A stretch of DNA of 63,952 bases, filler included, from Bipalium vagum (Eukaryota): assembly GCA_037834085.1 (NCBI GenBank). It is 3 parts of 3 records of this genome, joined end to end, with 100 filler letters (N's around TTAATTAATTAA, not from the genome) between each part and the next. Parts side by side here need not be neighbours in the genome. Positions count along the whole stretch, not along the records: positions 1 to 30,634 come from JBBMKC010268416.1; 2 more parts are not named here. The stretch is one strand, 5' to 3'. Positions 18,286 through 58,835 of the stretch are shown in pieces. Each line of letters starts with the position of its first letter. Position 1 is the first letter of the stretch. The notes under the pieces were generated by a model, which saw only the letters and a list, made by a program, of their open reading frames with translations, had not been told where the DNA came from and did not search any database. The translations under genes and the position numbers were made by a program.

Positions 18286-18806
18286 TCAAAGACCAGGGGG
18301 CCAAGATAATTTCTGTCCGCCGAAAACGTGAATATGTAAATGTGGCACATCTTGGAGGGCATCCTTCCCGTTGTTAATTACCAATCTATATCCATTTGTT
18401 GCGCCCCGCTGTTTCGCCAGTTTAGCAGCAACAAGCATCATGTGTCCCAATAACGTCTCATCACATTCTTGAGCCTCTTCTAAGTTTTCTATTTGTTTCA
18501 ATGGGACCACCAAGAACTATAACCAAAAAGATAAATTCACATATGAAAGTACTTTATTAAGCACGAAAAGTTTACTTTGACTTTCGTCTGACGACTCAAA
18601 CTTAGAAATGCTATACATTTATCATCCTCGTACAAAATTGTGGCAGGGATTTGTCTTTTGATAATTTTTGTAAACACTGATGGTTTGGAGTGCGGTTTAA
18701 TTTCACATTTCGTCTTCAGCTTTCTTCCATAATTCATTATCAATACAAAAATCACTGTGAAACTTAGGATGAGAACAAATCTGACAAGTATTTTTTGGTT
18801 TATCAT
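18286..18806 (-). CDS. HINT-family histidine triad protein (153 aa) with N-terminal hydrophobic anchor
   Basis: Exons 18806-18576 and 18516-18286, 59-nt GT-AG intron. SVFTKIIKRQIPATILYEDDKCIAF, LLGHMM, GYRLVINNG, HLHIH triad and C-terminal WPPG are HINT1/2 hallmarks. Confidence 0.92.
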
Positions 18807-19074
18807 TTTAAATAGTATTTTATAAAAATTTTAAAATATTTGCTTATTTAAATATGTTTATTTAGTTTAGTAAAAGAAAATGTTCATTTAGCTCAATGCC
18901 GTTTAATATTTTCACAAAATATCATAAGAAATTTTTTTTAAAAAAACCAAGATTTTATTTTATAGACATTTCCCATTTTTGCCCATAATTCTATGATTAA
19001 ATTTTATGAATTATGTCGTTACCTTATAATTTTAATTTGAATATTAATACTTAATATTTTGTGAAATATTATAT

Positions 19075-19200
19075 TAATAATAAATATAAAAATAATAATA
19101 AATAATCTTCATTATAATAATAATAATATATTATAATTATATAATAATAATAATAATAATGAATATTATAATTATAATAATAATACTAAGAATAATAATT
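19075..19200. repeat. Degenerate (AAT)n low-complexity tract
   Basis: Imperfect runs of aataataat. Confidence 0.7.
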
Positions 19201-19276
19201 AAAAAATAATTTTAGCTAATTAAATAGTACAAAATTAATTAAAAAGAAAAGAAGGCAATAAATTATTATTTTTTGG

Positions 19277-19983
19277 GATCTAATCTTGACAATGGCGAAC
19301 CTAAATTGCCAAGATTAGATCATGGTACACAAGGAGGGACCGATTTAGGATTAATGATCCTAAAAGGGGAATTGACATTTCCCATTAATAAAATTTGTCT
19401 ACGACTATATACTATATAAGGAGAAGGATTTCTCCATAAATTTACCCTCAACAACCAGACTTCAGATTCGAGATATTCGTAGAGATTCAAACCAGACGAC
19501 AGATTCAAGATATTCAGAAGACTATAATTCTAAAGTATATTGTTAATGCATTCAGTCCTGGAATTGTGTTTAAGCTTCCCATGAGAGGGCTATTTCTGAG
19601 CAACTGTAAAGGCTCAGCTAATAGTCCGGGAAGCTTAAGCGAAGCCATCCTGTAAGCTTGTTTATTTTATTTTATTTTCTTCTTGCTTAACAGTTTACTT
19701 TATTATTAATATAATTCTTAATTAATTATTATTATTATTTGACTTTTGAATCATTTAAGTGTTTATTTTGTTTTATTTTATAAACCTTTTGTGCTTGATT
19801 GATAAAGACAATTGCAGACATTTCAGATCTTATTGTGATCCTTGAGTTTGACGATTTTTGTGTAAATGTTATCATTGTGATTTTGTGTTATAAATACAAG
19901 TTTTGCTTTACTGATTGTTATTATTTTTGCACCACCTAAGAGTTGGAGTCAGGTTTAACTTTTGATACACTAGTTAATGAACA
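19277..19983 (+). mobile_element. Solo-LTR-like element, copy A (left boundary uncertain)
   Basis: Colinear homology with 54940-55600: TATATAAG, CCCTCA about 35 nt downstream, an internal direct repeat, a nested hairpin, GTAAG, ATTTCAG, ATAAATACAA, the identical 20-mer CCTAAGAGTTGGAGTCAGGT, and a shared end TGAACA. Confidence 0.65.
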
Positions 19984-20199
19984 AATATGTTCTACGTAAT
20001 GTATGTCAATTGAATCCTATTTAACTTAAATAATATAACTAATTACATTAACTTACCTATAAAATGTTTTAAATAAGCTAAATTCGGTCACCTATCTTGA
20101 AACTTTTTATTAACGTTTTTTTTTATAAAAGACTTCTATTTGTTATATAAGCCAAACAAAAAGAAACTGGTTTTATAATTTTGTTTATTAATATTAAAT

Positions 20200-20900
20200 G
20201 AACTCATTCAACATACAAATATTTATGTTGGCATCAGTGACGGACAGTAAGTTAACAGCAATTATCCATTTAGGTGTCCAGCATCAAGTATGGTAAAGGA
20301 CAAGTTACCAACTCTTAAGATTGAACATTCATAAAAGCTTTAAACCGATTCAAGGCATTATTAGTGGTTCTTGGTCTTTTGGTTAAGATTTCTGCGTTTT
20401 AGAAATACATTGGCGTTGAGTTGAAGCAACCCGTAATCATACAATGAAAGAAAACTCATCGATGAATTGTTCAAGAAAACCTTCAAAACGATACAAATGT
20501 TTTTGTTACTGATCTTATTTATAATTCAATTTTGTGATGCATTCCATCTTTTTGGATTTACCGCCACATCTCTTTCACTCATCCTATCTCATCACACCAC
20601 GTCGTCCATTATCTTCGTACTAGTTCAATAACAAATTTTTAGAGGGGTAGCCTTCACCTTTTTCAAAATATTTTGAACATTGGAACTTCATTTAATGTTT
20701 CAGTCTTTGGGTCTCCGCTAATTCCACTGGTTATCCATATCGATTCCACCAAAATTTTTCTATAAGTTCCCTCCTCCAAAGTTGTAAGTTGGTATCATAT
20801 CACAGCAATCATAAATTGAATGACTGATTGAGTATAACATATATTTAAACAAGTTTTGAGTCAGTGTCCCAAAAAATAAAAATAAACCTACAATGATTAA
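20200..20900 (-). mobile_element. Mutator/MULE-like transposase relic
   Basis: Minus strand contains RPRTTNNAL(E)S (MULE RTNNxxE motif, about 20380-20345) and a degenerate GT..KTC near 20870. Confidence 0.5.
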
Positions 20901-48366: not shown

Positions 48367-49102
48367 TCTTTTAATGCTTTTGGGCGAAACATAAATTTTA
48401 TTATTTGATGATGTTATTGTTTCACAAATTTCTCTATATATCTTTTTCCTTTTAGAAGTAATTCCTATACTAATTTTTTTCTCCAATATATAATAGTATA
48501 GCTCTAAAATTTGATGTTGCAATAGGAACATAAATTAATAATTTTTTTTCCTCATGTTGGCATTCCTGTCATAATTGCAGTTCCAATTCCTAAAATCCCT
48601 CCAATAAAAGAAATTCATAATTTAAAATGAGAATCTATAGATGTATGTTTAAATTTTTAATTTTTATAATGTTTTAAAAAATCCCCTAAAACTGTTATTG
48701 TAATCTTTTTCAAATTTATTTTTATACTTAAAAATTCTTACATGGTCACCAATATTATACTTTGGTTTTTATGTTAATTGATTAATATTTTCATTTTCAT
48801 TATTTTTTTTTTAATTTTTCTGGACTTTTACTCGTTACATTAGAAGATATTCCAATTGAATTATGAATTTTATTGTTATAAATAATTATTAAATTTGGTA
48901 ATAAGTTTAACCATTTTCTATTTCCTTGTTCTGTGGATTTTTTAAACATCATACTCTTCAAATTTTTATTTTCATGAGTATTTTTAAAATGTATGTTTGT
49001 ATTTAAATGTTTACTCTTATTATGTTTTAAAATACTTTTATTACAAACTTCACAAAAATATGTTTCAGTCATTTTTTTAAAAAGAAAATAATGATTATGC
49101 AT
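48367..49102 (-). mobile_element. Polinton/Maverick relic (C2H2 finger fused to retroviral-like integrase C-terminus)
   Basis: YFCEVCNKSILKHNKSKHLNTNIH, then NRKWLNLLPNLIIIYNNKIHNSIG and KPKYNIGDHVRIFKYKNKFEK. These match the 'W...L......YN...H..I' and 'PKF.VGD.VRI......F.K' motifs of Polinton integrases. Confidence 0.7.
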
Positions 49103-49149
49103 AACATTAAATATTGAATTTTTATTACCACTTTAATGTTATTTTTTAA

Positions 49150-50270: not shown

Positions 50271-52005
50271 ATGGCAGGAAAGCAAATTGCACAAATTGCT
50301 ATTGATGAATATGGAAGACCACTTGTTATATTAAAAGATGAAGAAAAGAAAAAACGGCTTGTTGGGATTGAAGCTCATAAGGTATAATAATTATGTTATC
50401 AGTAATTAATAACTGTCTTTTAGTCCCATATTATGGCAGCTAAGACAGTTTCTAATATCTTACGTACATCCCTTGGACCTAAAGGACTGGACAAGATTAT
50501 GGTTAGTTCAGATAATGACATTACAGTGACTAATGATGGAAGAACAATTATGGAAATGATGGACGTTGAACATGAAATTGCTAAGTTAATGGTTGAGCTT
50601 AGTAAATCACAAGATGATGAAATTGGTGATGGAACTACTGGAGTTGTGGTTTTGGCTGGAGCTCTTTTAGAGCAAGCTGAACAATTATTAGATCGTGGTA
50701 TACATCCTATTCGTGTATCAGATGGTTACGAGATGGCTGCAAAAATGTGTTTAGAAGAATTAGATAAAATCAGTGATACGTTTGTATTTAGCATGGAAAA
50801 TAAGGAGCCTTTAATTCAAACCGCTATGACTACATTAGGTTCAAAAATCGTCAATAAATGCCATAGATTATTTGCTGAAATGGCTGTTGAAGCTGTTTTA
50901 TCTGTTGCAGATGTTGAACGAAAAGATGTAGATTTTGAACTGATAAAAGTTGATGGTAAAGTTGGAGGAAACTTATCAGACTCACTTTTGGTAAAAGGAG
51001 TTATTGTTGATAAAGATTTCTCACATCCCCAAATGCCAAAATTTATCAAAGACGCGAAAATTGCCATATTAACTTGCGCATTTGAACCACCAAAGCCAAA
51101 AACAAAGCACAATCTTTATGTAGAATCCGTTAAAGATTATGAGAATTTGGCTAAATATGAACATGATAAATTTGTAGAGATGGTAGACCAAGTTAAAGAA
51201 TCTGGCGCAAATCTGGTGATTTGTCAATGGGGCTTTGATGATGAAGCTAATCATTTATTGTACCAAAAAAGTCTTCCTGCTGTGCGATGGGTTGGTGGTC
51301 CAGAAATTGAATTGATAGCCATTGCAACCGGTGGACGAATCGTTCCTCGATTTGAAGAATTGACATCCGAAAAACTGGGAAATGCTGGAATAGTTCGTGA
51401 ATTGTCATTTGGAACTACAAAGGACAAGATGCTTGTGATAGAGGAATGTAAAAACTCCAAAGCCGTTACTTGCTTCCTTAGAGGTGGTTCGAGAATGATT
51501 GTTGATGAAGCTAAACGGTCATTACATGACGCCTTATGCGTAGTTCGAAATTTGGTATGCTTTTTTCAATAATCTTATTTAAGAATAATCAATAAATTCT
51601 TTGAAGGTGCGAGATCCTAGAGTGGTATATGGTGGAGGAGCCTCGGAAATCGCGTGCTCACTCGCTGTTTCTAATGCTGCAGATCAAATACCAGGTTTGG
51701 AACAATATGCCATGAAAGCATTTGCTGAAGCGTTGGAGGCTATTCCGATTGCATTATCGGAAAACTCTGGCCTTCCTTCAATATCAACTGTTGCCGAATT
51801 GAAAGCCAGTCAACTGAAGGAACAAAACCCGAGATTGGGAGTAGATTGCAAGCGAGTGGGTACAAATGACATGAAAGAACAGCTCGTTCTAGAAACGCTT
51901 AGCTCGAAAAAGGCTCAGATCATGTTAGCTGTTCAGGTGTGTAAGATGATCTTGAAGATTGATGATATCAGAGTTCATGCTGAAGATGTAAGTGCAAATT
52001 ATTAA
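50271..52005 (+). CDS. CCT5: T-complex protein 1 subunit epsilon (chaperonin CCT5), complete
   Basis: Exons 50271-50381, 50424-51554, 51607-52005. Motifs [24 protein letters not shown] and the epsilon-specific [14 protein letters not shown] and [16 protein letters not shown]. Confidence 0.98.
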
Positions 52006-54239: not shown

Positions 54240-54600
54240 AAGCTATTGAAATGTTGAATATTCCAGAAAGACATGCATTTACTTCATTATATAATAATTC
54301 CTCAAAAGTTGCTCAGTTGAAGACAGTGTTCTTCCAGGAAGGCCTTCCAAAATAACAGATAAAATTAAATATATTAAGCAATTTTGAATAATGAACCTTC
54401 AAACAGTGTCCGTTTTGTTGCACGAGAAGCAAACCTACCAAATATTAAGCACATCAAATTATGCGAGAAATCATTGATTAGAAACCACAAATGATGTATG
54501 GTATGCAACATTTATATGAGGAAGATTTGCACCTGCGTATGGAAATATTGAAAAACATGATACCGATTCTTGAGGACCAGAAAAACAATGGCAATATATT
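54240..54600 (+). mobile_element. Tc1/mariner-superfamily N-terminal relic
   Basis: SVEDSVLPGRPSKIT (GRP linker) followed by a degenerate second HTH. Breaks off at about 54600. Confidence 0.45.
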
Positions 54601-54939
54601 GTTGGGCTTACCCAAGACTGGGAAAATAAAACCAAGGAAAATCATGAAAAAAGGTTTAAATTAAAAAAAATCATAATAATAATATTAATAATTAAAGTTA
54701 ATTAACTATTGAAAAAAATTAAAAATTCCCCGGTATTTTTATTTTGATAATACTTAATAAATAAAACAGCCCTCCAGAAGTTATTTTTACTTTTAAAGAA
54801 TTCTAAGAGGTAATTTATAAATATTAATAGTCATCAGAAAATAATTTTTTAGGGAATTTTAGAGTTTTAATAAAATTTTTAGAATTTTAAGATTAATTTT
54901 GAGATTATTTCAAGAATAATCTCCAGATGAAGATCAGTT

Positions 54940-55600
54940 TCAGAAAGTATATAAGCAGAGGAACTCTAGCATATTTTCACCCCTCAGAAAACGTTCTTAT
55001 AATTATTGTCATTTATGAAGAATACTGAAGCAGATTTCTATAAAGGAAGGATACTGAAGCAGATTTCTACAAAGGAAGGAAATTACAGTTCAATTCACAA
55101 GTATTTCAACGTTTATTTAAATGCTGGGACTATGCTTAAAATTCCCAACCAGCGGGTTACCGGTTAGCAACCGTTAGGGCTCAGACGATAACTCGGGAGT
55201 TTTAGCGGAAGATAAACCGTAAGATTGTTCTATTTTCTTTTATTTTTTAAAATAAAGTAACTATTAATATTGATTAACTTAGCGTATAAGTAATATTTTG
55301 TTTTAATTAGACTTGGAATTAAACATTATATTATAATTGACTTTTTATTTGACATTGCAGTTTGATATACTTATTATTCTATTAATTCATTTGATTTTTT
55401 TGTTGCTTGATTATATTTTGTTTTGCGGAGAAAGTTTGTGAAACATTTCAGACATTAATTGTGATCCCAGACTTTTGATTATCATTCTGTATTTTTTGAT
55501 TGTGTGATATAAATACAAATTGTTGCTTTACTGATTTTTATTATTTGCACTTCCTAAGAGTTGGAGTCAGGTCTAAATTTGATACACTAAACAGTGAACA
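54940..55600 (+). mobile_element. Solo-LTR-like element, copy B (may start near TGTTGG at 54600)
   Basis: Same ordered motifs as 19277-19983. Contains a 29-nt tandem duplication, 55022-55050 / 55051-55079. Confidence 0.65.
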
Positions 55601-55899
55601 AAACAGACTTTCACTTATTGAAGCGAAAAGTTTTAAATAAAAATTTAGAAGTGAAAACTTAGAGGTTAATAAAGAAATTCTCTACTTTGACTATAGATTA
55701 ATTTAAAAATGTTACTAAGAATAAGAGGAAACTATAAGTATTTGAATATTTTGTGAGCAGCAAAAGCATATACAAAAAATTATGATGAATTATTATCTTA
55801 AAGGAACACCGTCTTTATATAATAATTATTATTATCCAAAAATATTAAATCAATTCAATGATAATCTGTCAGTACTGATGTCACAATATCAAAATCTGA

Positions 55900-57150
55900 G
55901 AATTTTGATATTACTGATGATCCGGTTCTTGGTCTATTAATCCCACTGGAAAGGATCATCTGTGATGATCCTTATCCATTCTCCGAAAAATTCTGTAATT
56001 AATTTGTCAGCTCTCTGTATGAAATTTTATATATTCTTCCATCCACACTTTCAATTTGTCTGATTCAATAGTTTCAAGATCAACGTTATTTCCGCCATGG
56101 TCTTTTCTCAATATATGTTCCCTTCATAGAACCTCGCTAGCCACAGTTCATCATTGATATCATTTGATTCAACTATACATTCCTCGATATCCTGTAATAT
56201 ATTTTTATTATTTCCAGGAATAGATTTATCGTCAAATCGACTGGATGGTCTGTCATATCTATTGAAGAATTCATCAATTTTAATAATATCATTAGTCGTT
56301 CTTGATTTCGCCCTTTTCCCTCACCATATAATTGTTCTTCATGTTGTCTTACGTATGGGTCTGCCAATTTATTTAAATAATCTCTTTGAATCTTTCTTTC
56401 CATTTCACTACTCACCTTCTTCTGTGCTTTTCACCCTTCTCAGAAGTCTGTTTCTTGACCTCAATCTTGTTCGGTCACGACTAATGAAGATTTCATTATT
56501 AACTTACCTTTTTATCTACATTGCGATACCTCTATCGGTGATGTGATCTTTTGAAATAGTTAACGGCTCTTTTCATCGATTTTCTCTTCTAACGCAACTA
56601 AATTCTTATATTCCACTCTTCTACTAGAGATTCCACCTGTTCCCATTATTGTGCCAGGTACGTCATTTGGGGCTTAAATATTCTTGCGGTAGTCTGCTGT
56701 TCTCCTTGATTTTCTACGTAAACAGCTCATCATCATTAAATATTCATCGTCGTCTACATTCAAAGCTTCTTACATTATTTCTAAAAAAGCTCATCATCGT
56801 TGCCCATTCCTGATCTCCAAATCTGATCATTCTTATCTAAATCTTCACTGGGCTTAATCAAAACATTTTAATTACACATTTCTTTTATATCGTCGTATTA
56901 ACAACTTAATATCTAATTACTGTACCAAAAGTTCCACTATATAATATTTTATTATTTTACAACTTGCCATAAATTAGCAGAAGGTACTGCAAATTCCGTT
57001 ACATGGATAAATAAATCAACAATTTTATCTTTTTTTCCGAACCATTGTCGAAATTCCTTTTAATTTTTTTACCAACATCATCTGGATACGGATTCATCAA
57101 CACCATTGTATGCATCCTTTCTTCCAACAATTCGATCTACCCATTACCTA
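55900..57150 (-). mobile_element. Decayed gag-like region of an LTR retrotransposon
   Basis: AYNGVDESVSR* (gag 'F/YxG....WL' type start), an Arg/Ser-rich stretch, and a degenerate NCG*RG zinc-knuckle remnant near 56150. Many stops. Confidence 0.4.
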
Positions 57151-58099: not shown

Positions 58100-58570
58100 T
58101 AGATAAGTCAATGCATTCAAACAAATATGTTTTCAAAAAATATATTTTCATGTTTGAATATATAATAATTCATCTTCTGAGGTACAATTTCTTCTTTTTA
58201 CAATATTCTTCCATTTCGAAAACATATTTTCGATTGGATTTAGCATTGGAGAGTAGAATGAAAGGTATTGTAAACGTGTTCCTTTCCTTGAAAAATATTT
58301 TTGACACTATTACAGTTGTGAAAAGGAACGTTATCCAGTATAAGTACACATTTACTAACTGATTTGCTTTCAATATATTTAAAAATATATTTATGCATCC
58401 CAGAAATGAGCCACTATTTGACGGCTTGTAATTAATTATATGAAAGAATATGGCACAAAAAACACTTATATTTTTAGATTTAATACTTTTATTTCTTGTT
58501 ACTGGTGTTGACACAATCTTTGATCGGTCTTTAATAATTCTAACCAAACTTCATCTACAAAAAAAAATTA
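58100..58570 (-). mobile_element. IS630/Tc1-like DD34E transposase catalytic relic
   Basis: FVDE, KNISVFCAI, ILDNVPFH and YSPMLNPIENMFSKWK, across frameshifts. Confidence 0.85.
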
Positions 58571-58835
58571 CAGTCGGAAAATTCTTGTAACTCTTCCATA
58601 AGGTTGAGGCTTCGTCGGATAAAAGCAGATCAGATACGCCGACTAGGCATAAGTCATTCATACTGAGTGTTTCCTCAATATCTTTCAACCACCTTTCGGA
58701 TTCAGTAGAGCTTCTGCCGTTATATCGATTGATTTGAAATCCCAAAATGAGTTTTTTGGTAAAGCATACATAACTAATTTTTTTCCATTCTTCTGGTTAG
58801 AGCATTTACATTTTCGGTTTGGTCGCCAGTTAGTT
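58571..58835 (-). mobile_element. Ty3/Gypsy 5' fragment (PBS plus gag start)
   Basis: PBS-like TGGCGACC at 58828-58821, followed by INRYNGRSSTESERWLKDIE...LLLSDEASTLW. Confidence 0.6.

Follow-up and report, generated by a model that had tools for sequence, protein, structure and literature searches.

LTRs follow a modular pattern in which TG, a TATA box, an R-region stem-loop, a poly(A) box, a T-rich stretch and CA stand in this order, and R/U5 is the conserved part (PMC2664473). In foamy virus, the R region has a splice donor ahead of the poly(A) signal, which is controlled by U1 together with RNA structure (PMC3694450). In flatworms, both 4-bp TSDs and promoter activity have been described for solo LTRs (PMC4558846, PMC12471100). 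The pLTRs of Penelope-like elements in A. vaga combine a TATA box and Inr with 5' palindromes of 18-38 bp and TSDs of 8-10 bp (PMC3846280); an intron close to the TSS is retained in the 5' UTR of Penelope and Chlamys, and Naiads have no hammerheads and attain copy numbers in the tens of thousands (PMC2377424, PMC8557442). Further sources on Penelope-type elements are PMC11167929 and bioRxiv 10.64898/2026.07.22.740005.

In this study, we analysed a window (the whole stretch of DNA, 63,952 nt with filler) in which two diverged copies of a repeat, A and B, each carry an RNA hairpin on the + strand. It was hypothesised, with a probability of ca. 0.5, that both copies derive from an LTR retrotransposon as diverged solo LTRs and that the hairpin is a cis-acting RNA signal of the R region. 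Because structure in the R regions of LTRs, and in terminal repeats generally, is already a familiar feature, the novelty of the locus is placed below the first estimate.

Results

A conserved hairpin in copies A and B

The hairpins of the two copies are as follows.

19568..19640, + strand: hairpin A, defined by its stems, pair probabilities and the two-copy comparison
55134..55206, + strand: hairpin B, with a 12-bp basal stem containing one bulge, a 7-nt bulge and a GUUA tetraloop

Hairpin A consists of a 13-bp basal stem, a 6-nt 5' bulge, an 8-bp stem, a 1x2 loop and a 6-bp stem, above which an AA bulge and a 2-bp stem lead to a GUAA tetraloop. Its MFE was -37.1 kcal/mol (z -7.11), none of 200 shuffled sequences was equally stable, and the original prediction of the coordinates and stems of this copy was thus borne out. 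Nearly all stem pairs had a probability of 0.95-1.00 in a 326-nt context. The 'loop' reported earlier contains the 2-bp stem, and its cap is GUAA in A and GUUA in B. The opposite strand folded with only -28.3 kcal/mol, the + strand being favoured because of G-U pairs. Just 5' of the hairpin of A, a 10-nt stretch (19554-19563) repeats a part of the 3' arm (19623-19632) at 9 of 10 positions. This stretch could displace the 3' arm, and a bistable RNA is possible; competing folds are also present in B.

Hairpin B in isolation took the A-like shape weakly (z -1.80; 8 of 200 shuffles equally stable). With at least 15 nt of flank the long hairpin became a minor fold, and the outer-stem pair at C55144 had a probability between 0.00 and about 0.15 in context. 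The claim that B shares the architecture of A held for the overall shape and failed for the details of the basal stem, which is shorter and has one bulged base, and of the 5' bulge, which is longer. The inner stem, which had been called partly broken in B, keeps four of its six pairs.

The two-copy alignment comprises 29 pairs, of which five were changed on both sides, four were changed on one side and five were broken in B, two of the last being the terminal pairs offset by a 1-nt gap. Three of the double changes had been named earlier and were recovered (alignment columns 20/81, 21/80 and 37/71), one of the outer ones being lost when the 1-nt gap of B is set elsewhere in the outer 3' arm, as BLAST does. 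The two additional double changes are 19594/19620 (U-A to C-G) and 19605/19610 (U-A to C-G), the latter in the 2-bp stem inside the reported 'loop'. With the two terminal pairs left out, 24 of 27 core pairs were kept in B despite 17 substitutions, and the three broken core pairs compare with 7.9-11.3 expected under a random-substitution null. The probability of both criteria of this post hoc test, for which the structure was taken from A, was 1.5e-5, 3e-5 and 2e-3 under three substitution spectra. The loop letters were more conserved than the stems. The hairpin is real, beyond chance, and it is a selected RNA structure.

The idea that selection acted on + strand RNA structure in a non-coding mobile repeat is supported by the two-copy covariation, by the G-U strand bias and by variant rows from other copies (see below). 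The accompanying options of a ribozyme or a free small RNA found no support in Rfam or in hammerhead and HDV pattern scans. In line with the earlier statement that no known core is matched, Rfam gave 0 matches at the gathering threshold in the window (small ribozymes, SECIS, snoRNA and miRNA), and the best weak match was snoU105B with 22.6 of 49 bits, in A only.

Promoter-like, splice-like and poly(A)-like signals around the hairpin

Homology between A and B extends from the TATA box to their common end (66% identity over 528 columns). Their upstream regions do not align, and the 5' ends have TGTT alone in common. The following features were assigned, those of the introns by prediction.

19071..19210, + strand: (ATA)n microsatellite in the candidate U3 of A, non-diagnostic as similar tracts lie elsewhere in the window
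19277..19321, no strand: 45-bp near-perfect palindrome upstream of the TATA box, in A only, the deepest block of the family
19413..19419, + strand: TATA box of A, with an initiator-like A at 19444
54948..54954, + strand: TATA box of B, with an initiator-like A at 54979
55017-55080: 29-bp tandem repeat in the leader of B
19652..19940, + strand: putative intron of A, 289 nt, with a GTAAG donor, a T-rich stretch (51% T), TACTGAT and an AAG acceptor
55219..55558, + strand: putative intron of B, 340 nt, GTAAG...CCTAAG, 49% T
19889..19894 (A) and 55508-13 (B), + strand: TATAAA ahead of a T-rich stretch, a candidate for a poly(A) signal of variant sequence
19864..19983, + strand: 3' block with the highest conservation and AACA as its end, a candidate for U5 and the end of R

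Identity between A and B was 59% in the TATA/Inr part and 69% in the hairpin region, and reached 75% and 88% by block in the last 170 columns; conservation thus peaks at the hairpin and at the 3' end and is lowest in the leader (48%) and the T-rich stretch (52%). The 88% applies to the last 94 aligned columns, which belong to the 3' block. In A and B alike, 31 nt separate the TATA box from the initiator-like A. From there to the start of the hairpin it is 124 nt in copy A and 155 nt in copy B; about 120-150 nt had originally been given.

In both copies GTAAG lies 11-12 nt 3' of the hairpin, and the 3' block holds the branch-point-like TACTGAT, a pyrimidine tract and AAG. Look-alikes of donor, branch point and acceptor are present in A as well as in B, the splicing itself being predicted from sequence, and an intron of the host gene CCT5 likewise ends in AAG (one example). 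An AATAAA common to the two copies was not found. The apical sequence of the hairpin recurs imperfectly, as a direct repeat, at the donor site (19602-19611/19647-19656 in A; 55169-55178/55214-55223 in B), and at the equivalent position of both repeats A has T and B has C (CTGT vs CCGT).

The palindrome at 19277..19321 is likely an enhancer or binding site acting at the DNA level, judging by its form and depth. Three consecutive palindromes precede the TATA box of A (19277-19387). Joints run back from about 19345 to 19277, which suggests that this block occurs in tandem at other loci.

Ends of the units and flanking repeats

The extent of the units and the sequences around them are as follows.

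18855..19983, + strand: full extent of copy A if read as an LTR (1,129 bp, TGTT...AACA), its left edge being uncertain
54600..55600, + strand: copy B as a whole unit under the LTR reading, TGTT...AACA, 1,001 bp
18850..18858 (left) and 19983-19991 (right), + strand: 9-bp direct repeat around A, an exact 9-mer that includes AATA and TGTT
54763..54771, + strand: alternative left edge of B, a 9-bp direct repeat with its right copy at 55600-55608 and one mismatch
54381..54599, + strand: decayed Tc1/mariner-like transposase relic that breaks off at the candidate left edge of B

The right end is fixed at GAACA in both copies (19983 and 55600). At this edge of A, the depth of placed contigs fell from 4,909 to 41 at bin 20000, and the loose ends agreed with both copies up to GAACA. 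On the left, both possible readings of the ends rest on two copies. Under the LTR reading, A has a 4-bp candidate TSD, AATA (18851-54/19984-87), next to the TGTT at 18855, and no 4-6-bp TSD was found for B (ATAT vs AAAC). A TGTT start is plausible for both units from their sequence.

The candidate left edge of B at 54600 is independently marked by the stop of the transposase relic. We take this relic to be Tc1/mariner from its GRP and SDE motifs, FFSDE being presumably a Tc1/mariner transposase motif. For the ORF at 54482, the match to five homologs extends as far as 54601-54607, and two of these homologs run on with FFSDE. The rest of the relic gave no tblastn match at E<=1 to the right of B, and Pfam gave no match in the relic region.

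Under the other reading, insertion by target-primed reverse transcription (TPRT), the ends would be set by the 9-bp repeats, which begin at one shared register, after ...GAAC, in A and B. For A, such a repeat had an empirical frequency of 2.2% (2,327 random positions), and for B the corresponding null was 16% (7 exact) to 24% (9 with one mismatch). The terminal stem-loop of the unit is weak (-2 to -4 kcal/mol).

Size and variation of the repeat family

Of the 1,835,864 contigs of run X1, 5,541 were placed on A at >=80% identity, with 19150-20150 as the target, so that the multi-copy depth covers A from 19150 onward. The depth was 41,760 at the hairpin, up to 307,983 in the 3' block and 389,710 at the palindrome 19277-19321, compared with about 24 in the unique flank, that is, up to 10^3-10^4 times the flank. 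The family of A and B is very large; the statement stops there because summed depth does not give the number of copies and the window itself may derive from the sample of X1. Among the sequencing runs, X1 was the one listed as containing the repeat, and no RNA run was listed. Through joints, the hairpin is connected with the upstream block on one side and with the 3' block on the other, the spacers between them being of different kinds. The similar depth of the upstream and 3' blocks suggests many full-length units, and not 5'-truncated ones alone.

Eight of the 40 variant rows listed (of 226) fall in the hairpin, two in the bulge and six in the stems, the rows not being linked per copy. Among these rows, five of the six stem variants were compatible with pairing, and four fit the partner base of A. 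The variant 19594 T>C (93 contigs) was matched by 19620 A>G (95 contigs), which together give the C-G pair of B. The variant 19577 T>C (76 contigs) breaks its pair unless a partner change is present in the other 186 of the 226 rows, none being among the 40 listed.

No third copy was found in the window. Exact-pattern scans for further copies gave 0 in viral contigs, 0 in prokaryote genomes and, with one pattern, 0 in metagenomes. The 33 metagenome loci obtained with another pattern were attributed to chance after inspection, nhmmer (one weak match, E 0.041) and a covariance model. The literature searched held no paper on this family, and the repeat is apparently undescribed; Repbase and Dfam lay outside the search, so it may already be catalogued there. 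Two other repeat pairs in the window are 53350-53409/63204-63265 and 24713-24869/25443-25597, of which one is inverted (90%) and the other direct (73%).

Host and gene content of the window

The window has a GC content of about 27% and contains CCT5, a HIT-family gene, a C2H2 zinc-finger gene and genes for dynactin p62, a kinase and a RecQ helicase, besides several DDE transposase relics. The top named animal matches of CCT5 were flatworms, the first named match being labelled fungus. In a CCT5 tree of 41 rows, with 40 of the 120 homologs listed, the window sequence grouped with parasitic flatworms and three further sequences (support 99/95) and stood outside the set of cestodes, trematodes and monogeneans. 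Because of this placement, the host is probably a flatworm outside the sampled parasites.

No Pfam match to RT, integrase, gag or GIY-YIG was obtained in 189 distinct ORFs of the window (minimum 45-55 aa), nor in stop-tolerant frames beside B. No gag-pol ORF stands beside A or B within the window. Likewise, no paired LTR, internal region, PBS or PPT was found next to A or B in the window.

Several other observations concern the neighbourhood. The HIT-family gene (18289-18830, - strand) has a hydrophobic N-terminal extension and stands head to head with copy A, its first ATG lying about 50 bp from the candidate left edge of A. CCT5 (50424-52005) has an exon of roughly 380 codons and a short intron ending in AAG instead of YAG. 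To the right of A, 20400-20900 (- strand) resembles a piggyBac-like transposase relic by eye. To the right of B, 56000-57100 (- strand) is a decayed coding relic that looks by eye like the pre-RT region of a non-LTR element and had no Pfam match. A gag-like fragment (58554-58796, - strand) and a fragment like the C-terminus of an integrase (48803-49132, - strand) were also recognised by eye; neither had a Pfam match or is linked to the repeat.

Discussion

Proposed solo LTRs with an R-region hairpin

Since the order of TG, a variable upstream part, TATA, R stem-loop, poly(A) box, T-rich stretch and CA, together with the conservation of R/U5, fits the modular LTR pattern, the LTR reading is supported. 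The label 'LTR-like' in the original prediction remains the best class, albeit an unproven one. The points against it are the lack of a paired LTR, internal region, PBS, PPT or gag/pol ORF beside the copies, the lack of a TSD in B, the unaligned 5' regions, the short distance between the left edge of A and the HIT-family gene, the absence of a shared AATAAA, the other fold of B and the stem variant 19577 T>C; besides, the 9-bp flanking repeats fit another mechanism equally well.

The following course of events may be envisaged for an LTR. Pol II would start near 19444 and 54979, and the hairpin would fold within the first 200-230 nt of the transcript. Gag or RT encoded by the element may bind it, serving packaging, dimerisation or strand transfer, and U1 at the donor downstream of the hairpin could repress the 5' LTR's own poly(A) signal in a foamy-virus-like manner. 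Selection would have acted on the hairpin while the subfamilies were mobile, and LTR-LTR recombination would have left solo copies that are now decaying. Such decay would explain the broken inner stem of B, and recombination between non-allelic LTRs would explain why B has no TSD.

Related assignments were discarded. The sequence TGGAGTCAGG, which presumably resembles a tRNA-Leu 3' terminus, was dropped as a PBS, as the common sequence stops about 30 nt later and the available ta-TRIM text gave no confirmation. The purine tract at 19243-57 is not followed by TG, as a PPT would be. TRIMp3 elements (Helenus, Ajax, Cassandra), defined by a tRNA- or 5S-derived promoter in the LTR (PMC10886601), were excluded since the repeat has no tRNA or 5S part (ARAGORN found 0 tRNA genes in the window, Rfam none). 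A reading of (ATA)n as the tail of a minus-strand non-LTR element does not fit the flanking repeats.

Alternative explanations

It is unlikely that the units are solo pseudo-LTRs or non-autonomous Penelope-like derivatives without a canonical hammerhead. Such units would be inserted by TPRT from a fixed 3' end, the promoter and a 5'-UTR intron would be kept, and the hairpin would be a structure bound by RT. This would account for the palindrome and a putative retained intron, and it agrees with the shared register of the 9-bp repeats (null 2.2% for A and 16-24% for B) and with the unrelated 5' parts of A and B. However, neither our own pattern scan nor Rfam found a hammerhead core in A or B, and the repeat contains no common ORF start, whereas the pLTR described in the available part of PMC3846280 includes the first 12 codons. 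Furthermore, no RT or GIY-YIG ORF lies nearby and no tandem or inverted arrangement was seen in this window, the Tc1 breakpoint favours 54600 over 54772 as the edge of B, and the depth of the upstream block matches that of the 3' block.

It is quite improbable that the unit stems from a DNA transposon or a rolling-circle element of non-autonomous type (Helentron/HINE- or Mutator-like), with its stems acting in ssDNA, or belongs to a dispersed family of host ncRNA genes. The 9-bp flanking repeats, the internal microsatellite, the palindromes and the small terminal stem-loop are in keeping with it. Against this, the G-U pairs favour RNA on the + strand, the TATA/Inr spacing and the splice-like signals are conserved, A and B have no terminal inverted repeats in common and the terminal stem-loop is weak. 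A pre-miRNA was also rejected, for which conserved arms and a varying loop would be expected; here the arms vary, the loop is kept and there is a 6-nt bulge. Likenesses to flatworm spliced-leader RNA, the pistol ribozyme and a tetraloop-receptor were unsupported by Rfam or by both copies.

We consider it very improbable that the hairpin is an unclassified small ribozyme or switch with a pseudoknot between the bulge and the following upstream motif.

19558..19561 (A) and 55124-27 (B), + strand: CTGG, kept in both copies

CTGG is complementary to the bulge CCAG of B and of most other copies (variant rows 19582 and 19583). The MFE structure of B in context pairs GCUGG with CCAGC and uses an alternative long stem, and the conservation of the loop letters over the stems points the same way. 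A pseudoknot between CTGG and the bulge is possible from the sequence; the pairing is broken in A, and a 4-nt match of this kind, noticed post hoc, has a chance of about 4% in 25 nt. As for the ribozyme itself, no Rfam ribozyme matched, no hammerhead core was present, and a relaxed HDV descriptor gave 0 matches on both strands of both copies.

HBV uses TATAAA as its poly(A) signal, the hexamer found here. We give very little credence to an epsilon-like hairpin whose 5' bulge templates protein-primed RT and serves packaging, the units being the terminal redundancy of a HEART-like integrated element. The geometry of A equals the 13-bp basal stem and 6-nt bulge of HBV epsilon (PMC9157404), one bulge word is common to B and most copies listed, and epsilon-like stem-bulge-stem-loops lie 3' of a TATA box in invertebrate-associated proto-nackednaviruses (PMC12691608). 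However, B departs from this geometry in both basal stem and bulge, and the upper stem has 16 bp with internal loops vs 11 bp and a hexaloop in epsilon. No Rfam epsilon model matched at E<=10, no DR1/DR2-type repeat of at least 7 nt is common to both copies, the bulge word has no conserved acceptor, and there is no TP/RT ORF. A match of the bulge to a downstream acceptor was rejected, as the registers differ between A and B. The cited texts do not report such elements with fixed ends and in very many copies.

A slim prospect is an epsilon-like signal whose bulge serves as a priming template or takes part in a pseudoknot, on a massively amplified, intron-bearing terminal repeat of a retroelement class new to flatworms. 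If true, a mobile element of the chromosomes would be connected with epsilon-type priming, and the finding would be relevant to HEART-like mobilisation, which has been called unresolved (PMC12440569).

Comparison with known systems

If the class proves ordinary, the present repeat would be a good example of a known principle rather than a new system. It is rare for cis-acting RNA structures to be defined by covariation in the LTR or pLTR repeats of invertebrates, and the many diverged copies would provide an unusually deep alignment for the hairpin signal, the possible pseudoknot and the link to the splice donor. With their promoter look-alikes and adjoining host genes, the units could promote host transcription in the manner of ta-TRIM solo LTRs.

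As compared to the epsilon signals of hepadnaviruses and nackednaviruses (PMC9157404, PMC12691608, as far as available), the present hairpin differs in its upper stem and loop, has no Rfam match, DR1/DR2 or P or core ORF, and is integrated at very high copy. Penelope-like pLTRs (PMC3846280, PMC2377424, PMC8557442 and PMC11167929, in their available parts) are alike in the TATA box plus Inr, the upstream palindrome, the intron-like segment, the 9-bp flanking repeats and the fixed 3' end, and are unlike in the hammerhead, the ORF start in the repeat and the tandem or inverted arrangement, which are missing here.

Flatworm LTR retrotransposons and TRIMs (ta-TRIM and lennie, PMC4558846; Saci2-like, PMC12471100), which could be compared by description only, likewise have a flatworm host and many dispersed non-coding terminal repeats. 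They have TG...CA ends and a promoter inside the repeat, for both of which there are candidates in A and B, and A has a candidate for their 4-bp TSD. The units here measure about 1.0-1.1 kb as against 198 bp, and no PBS, PPT or paired LTR was seen here. The available parts of these papers describe no covarying LTR hairpin and suppose the packaging structure to lie in the internal region.

Retroviral R stem-loops and the foamy-virus LTR (PMC2664473, PMC3694450, as far as available), differ in that the present host is an invertebrate, the hairpin lies 124-155 nt after the start and not at it, the poly(A) hexamer is a variant and the function is predicted. They share with A and B the order of TATA box, start, stem-loop, donor, poly(A) signal, T-rich stretch and CA, and their conservation is concentrated in R/U5, as it is here.
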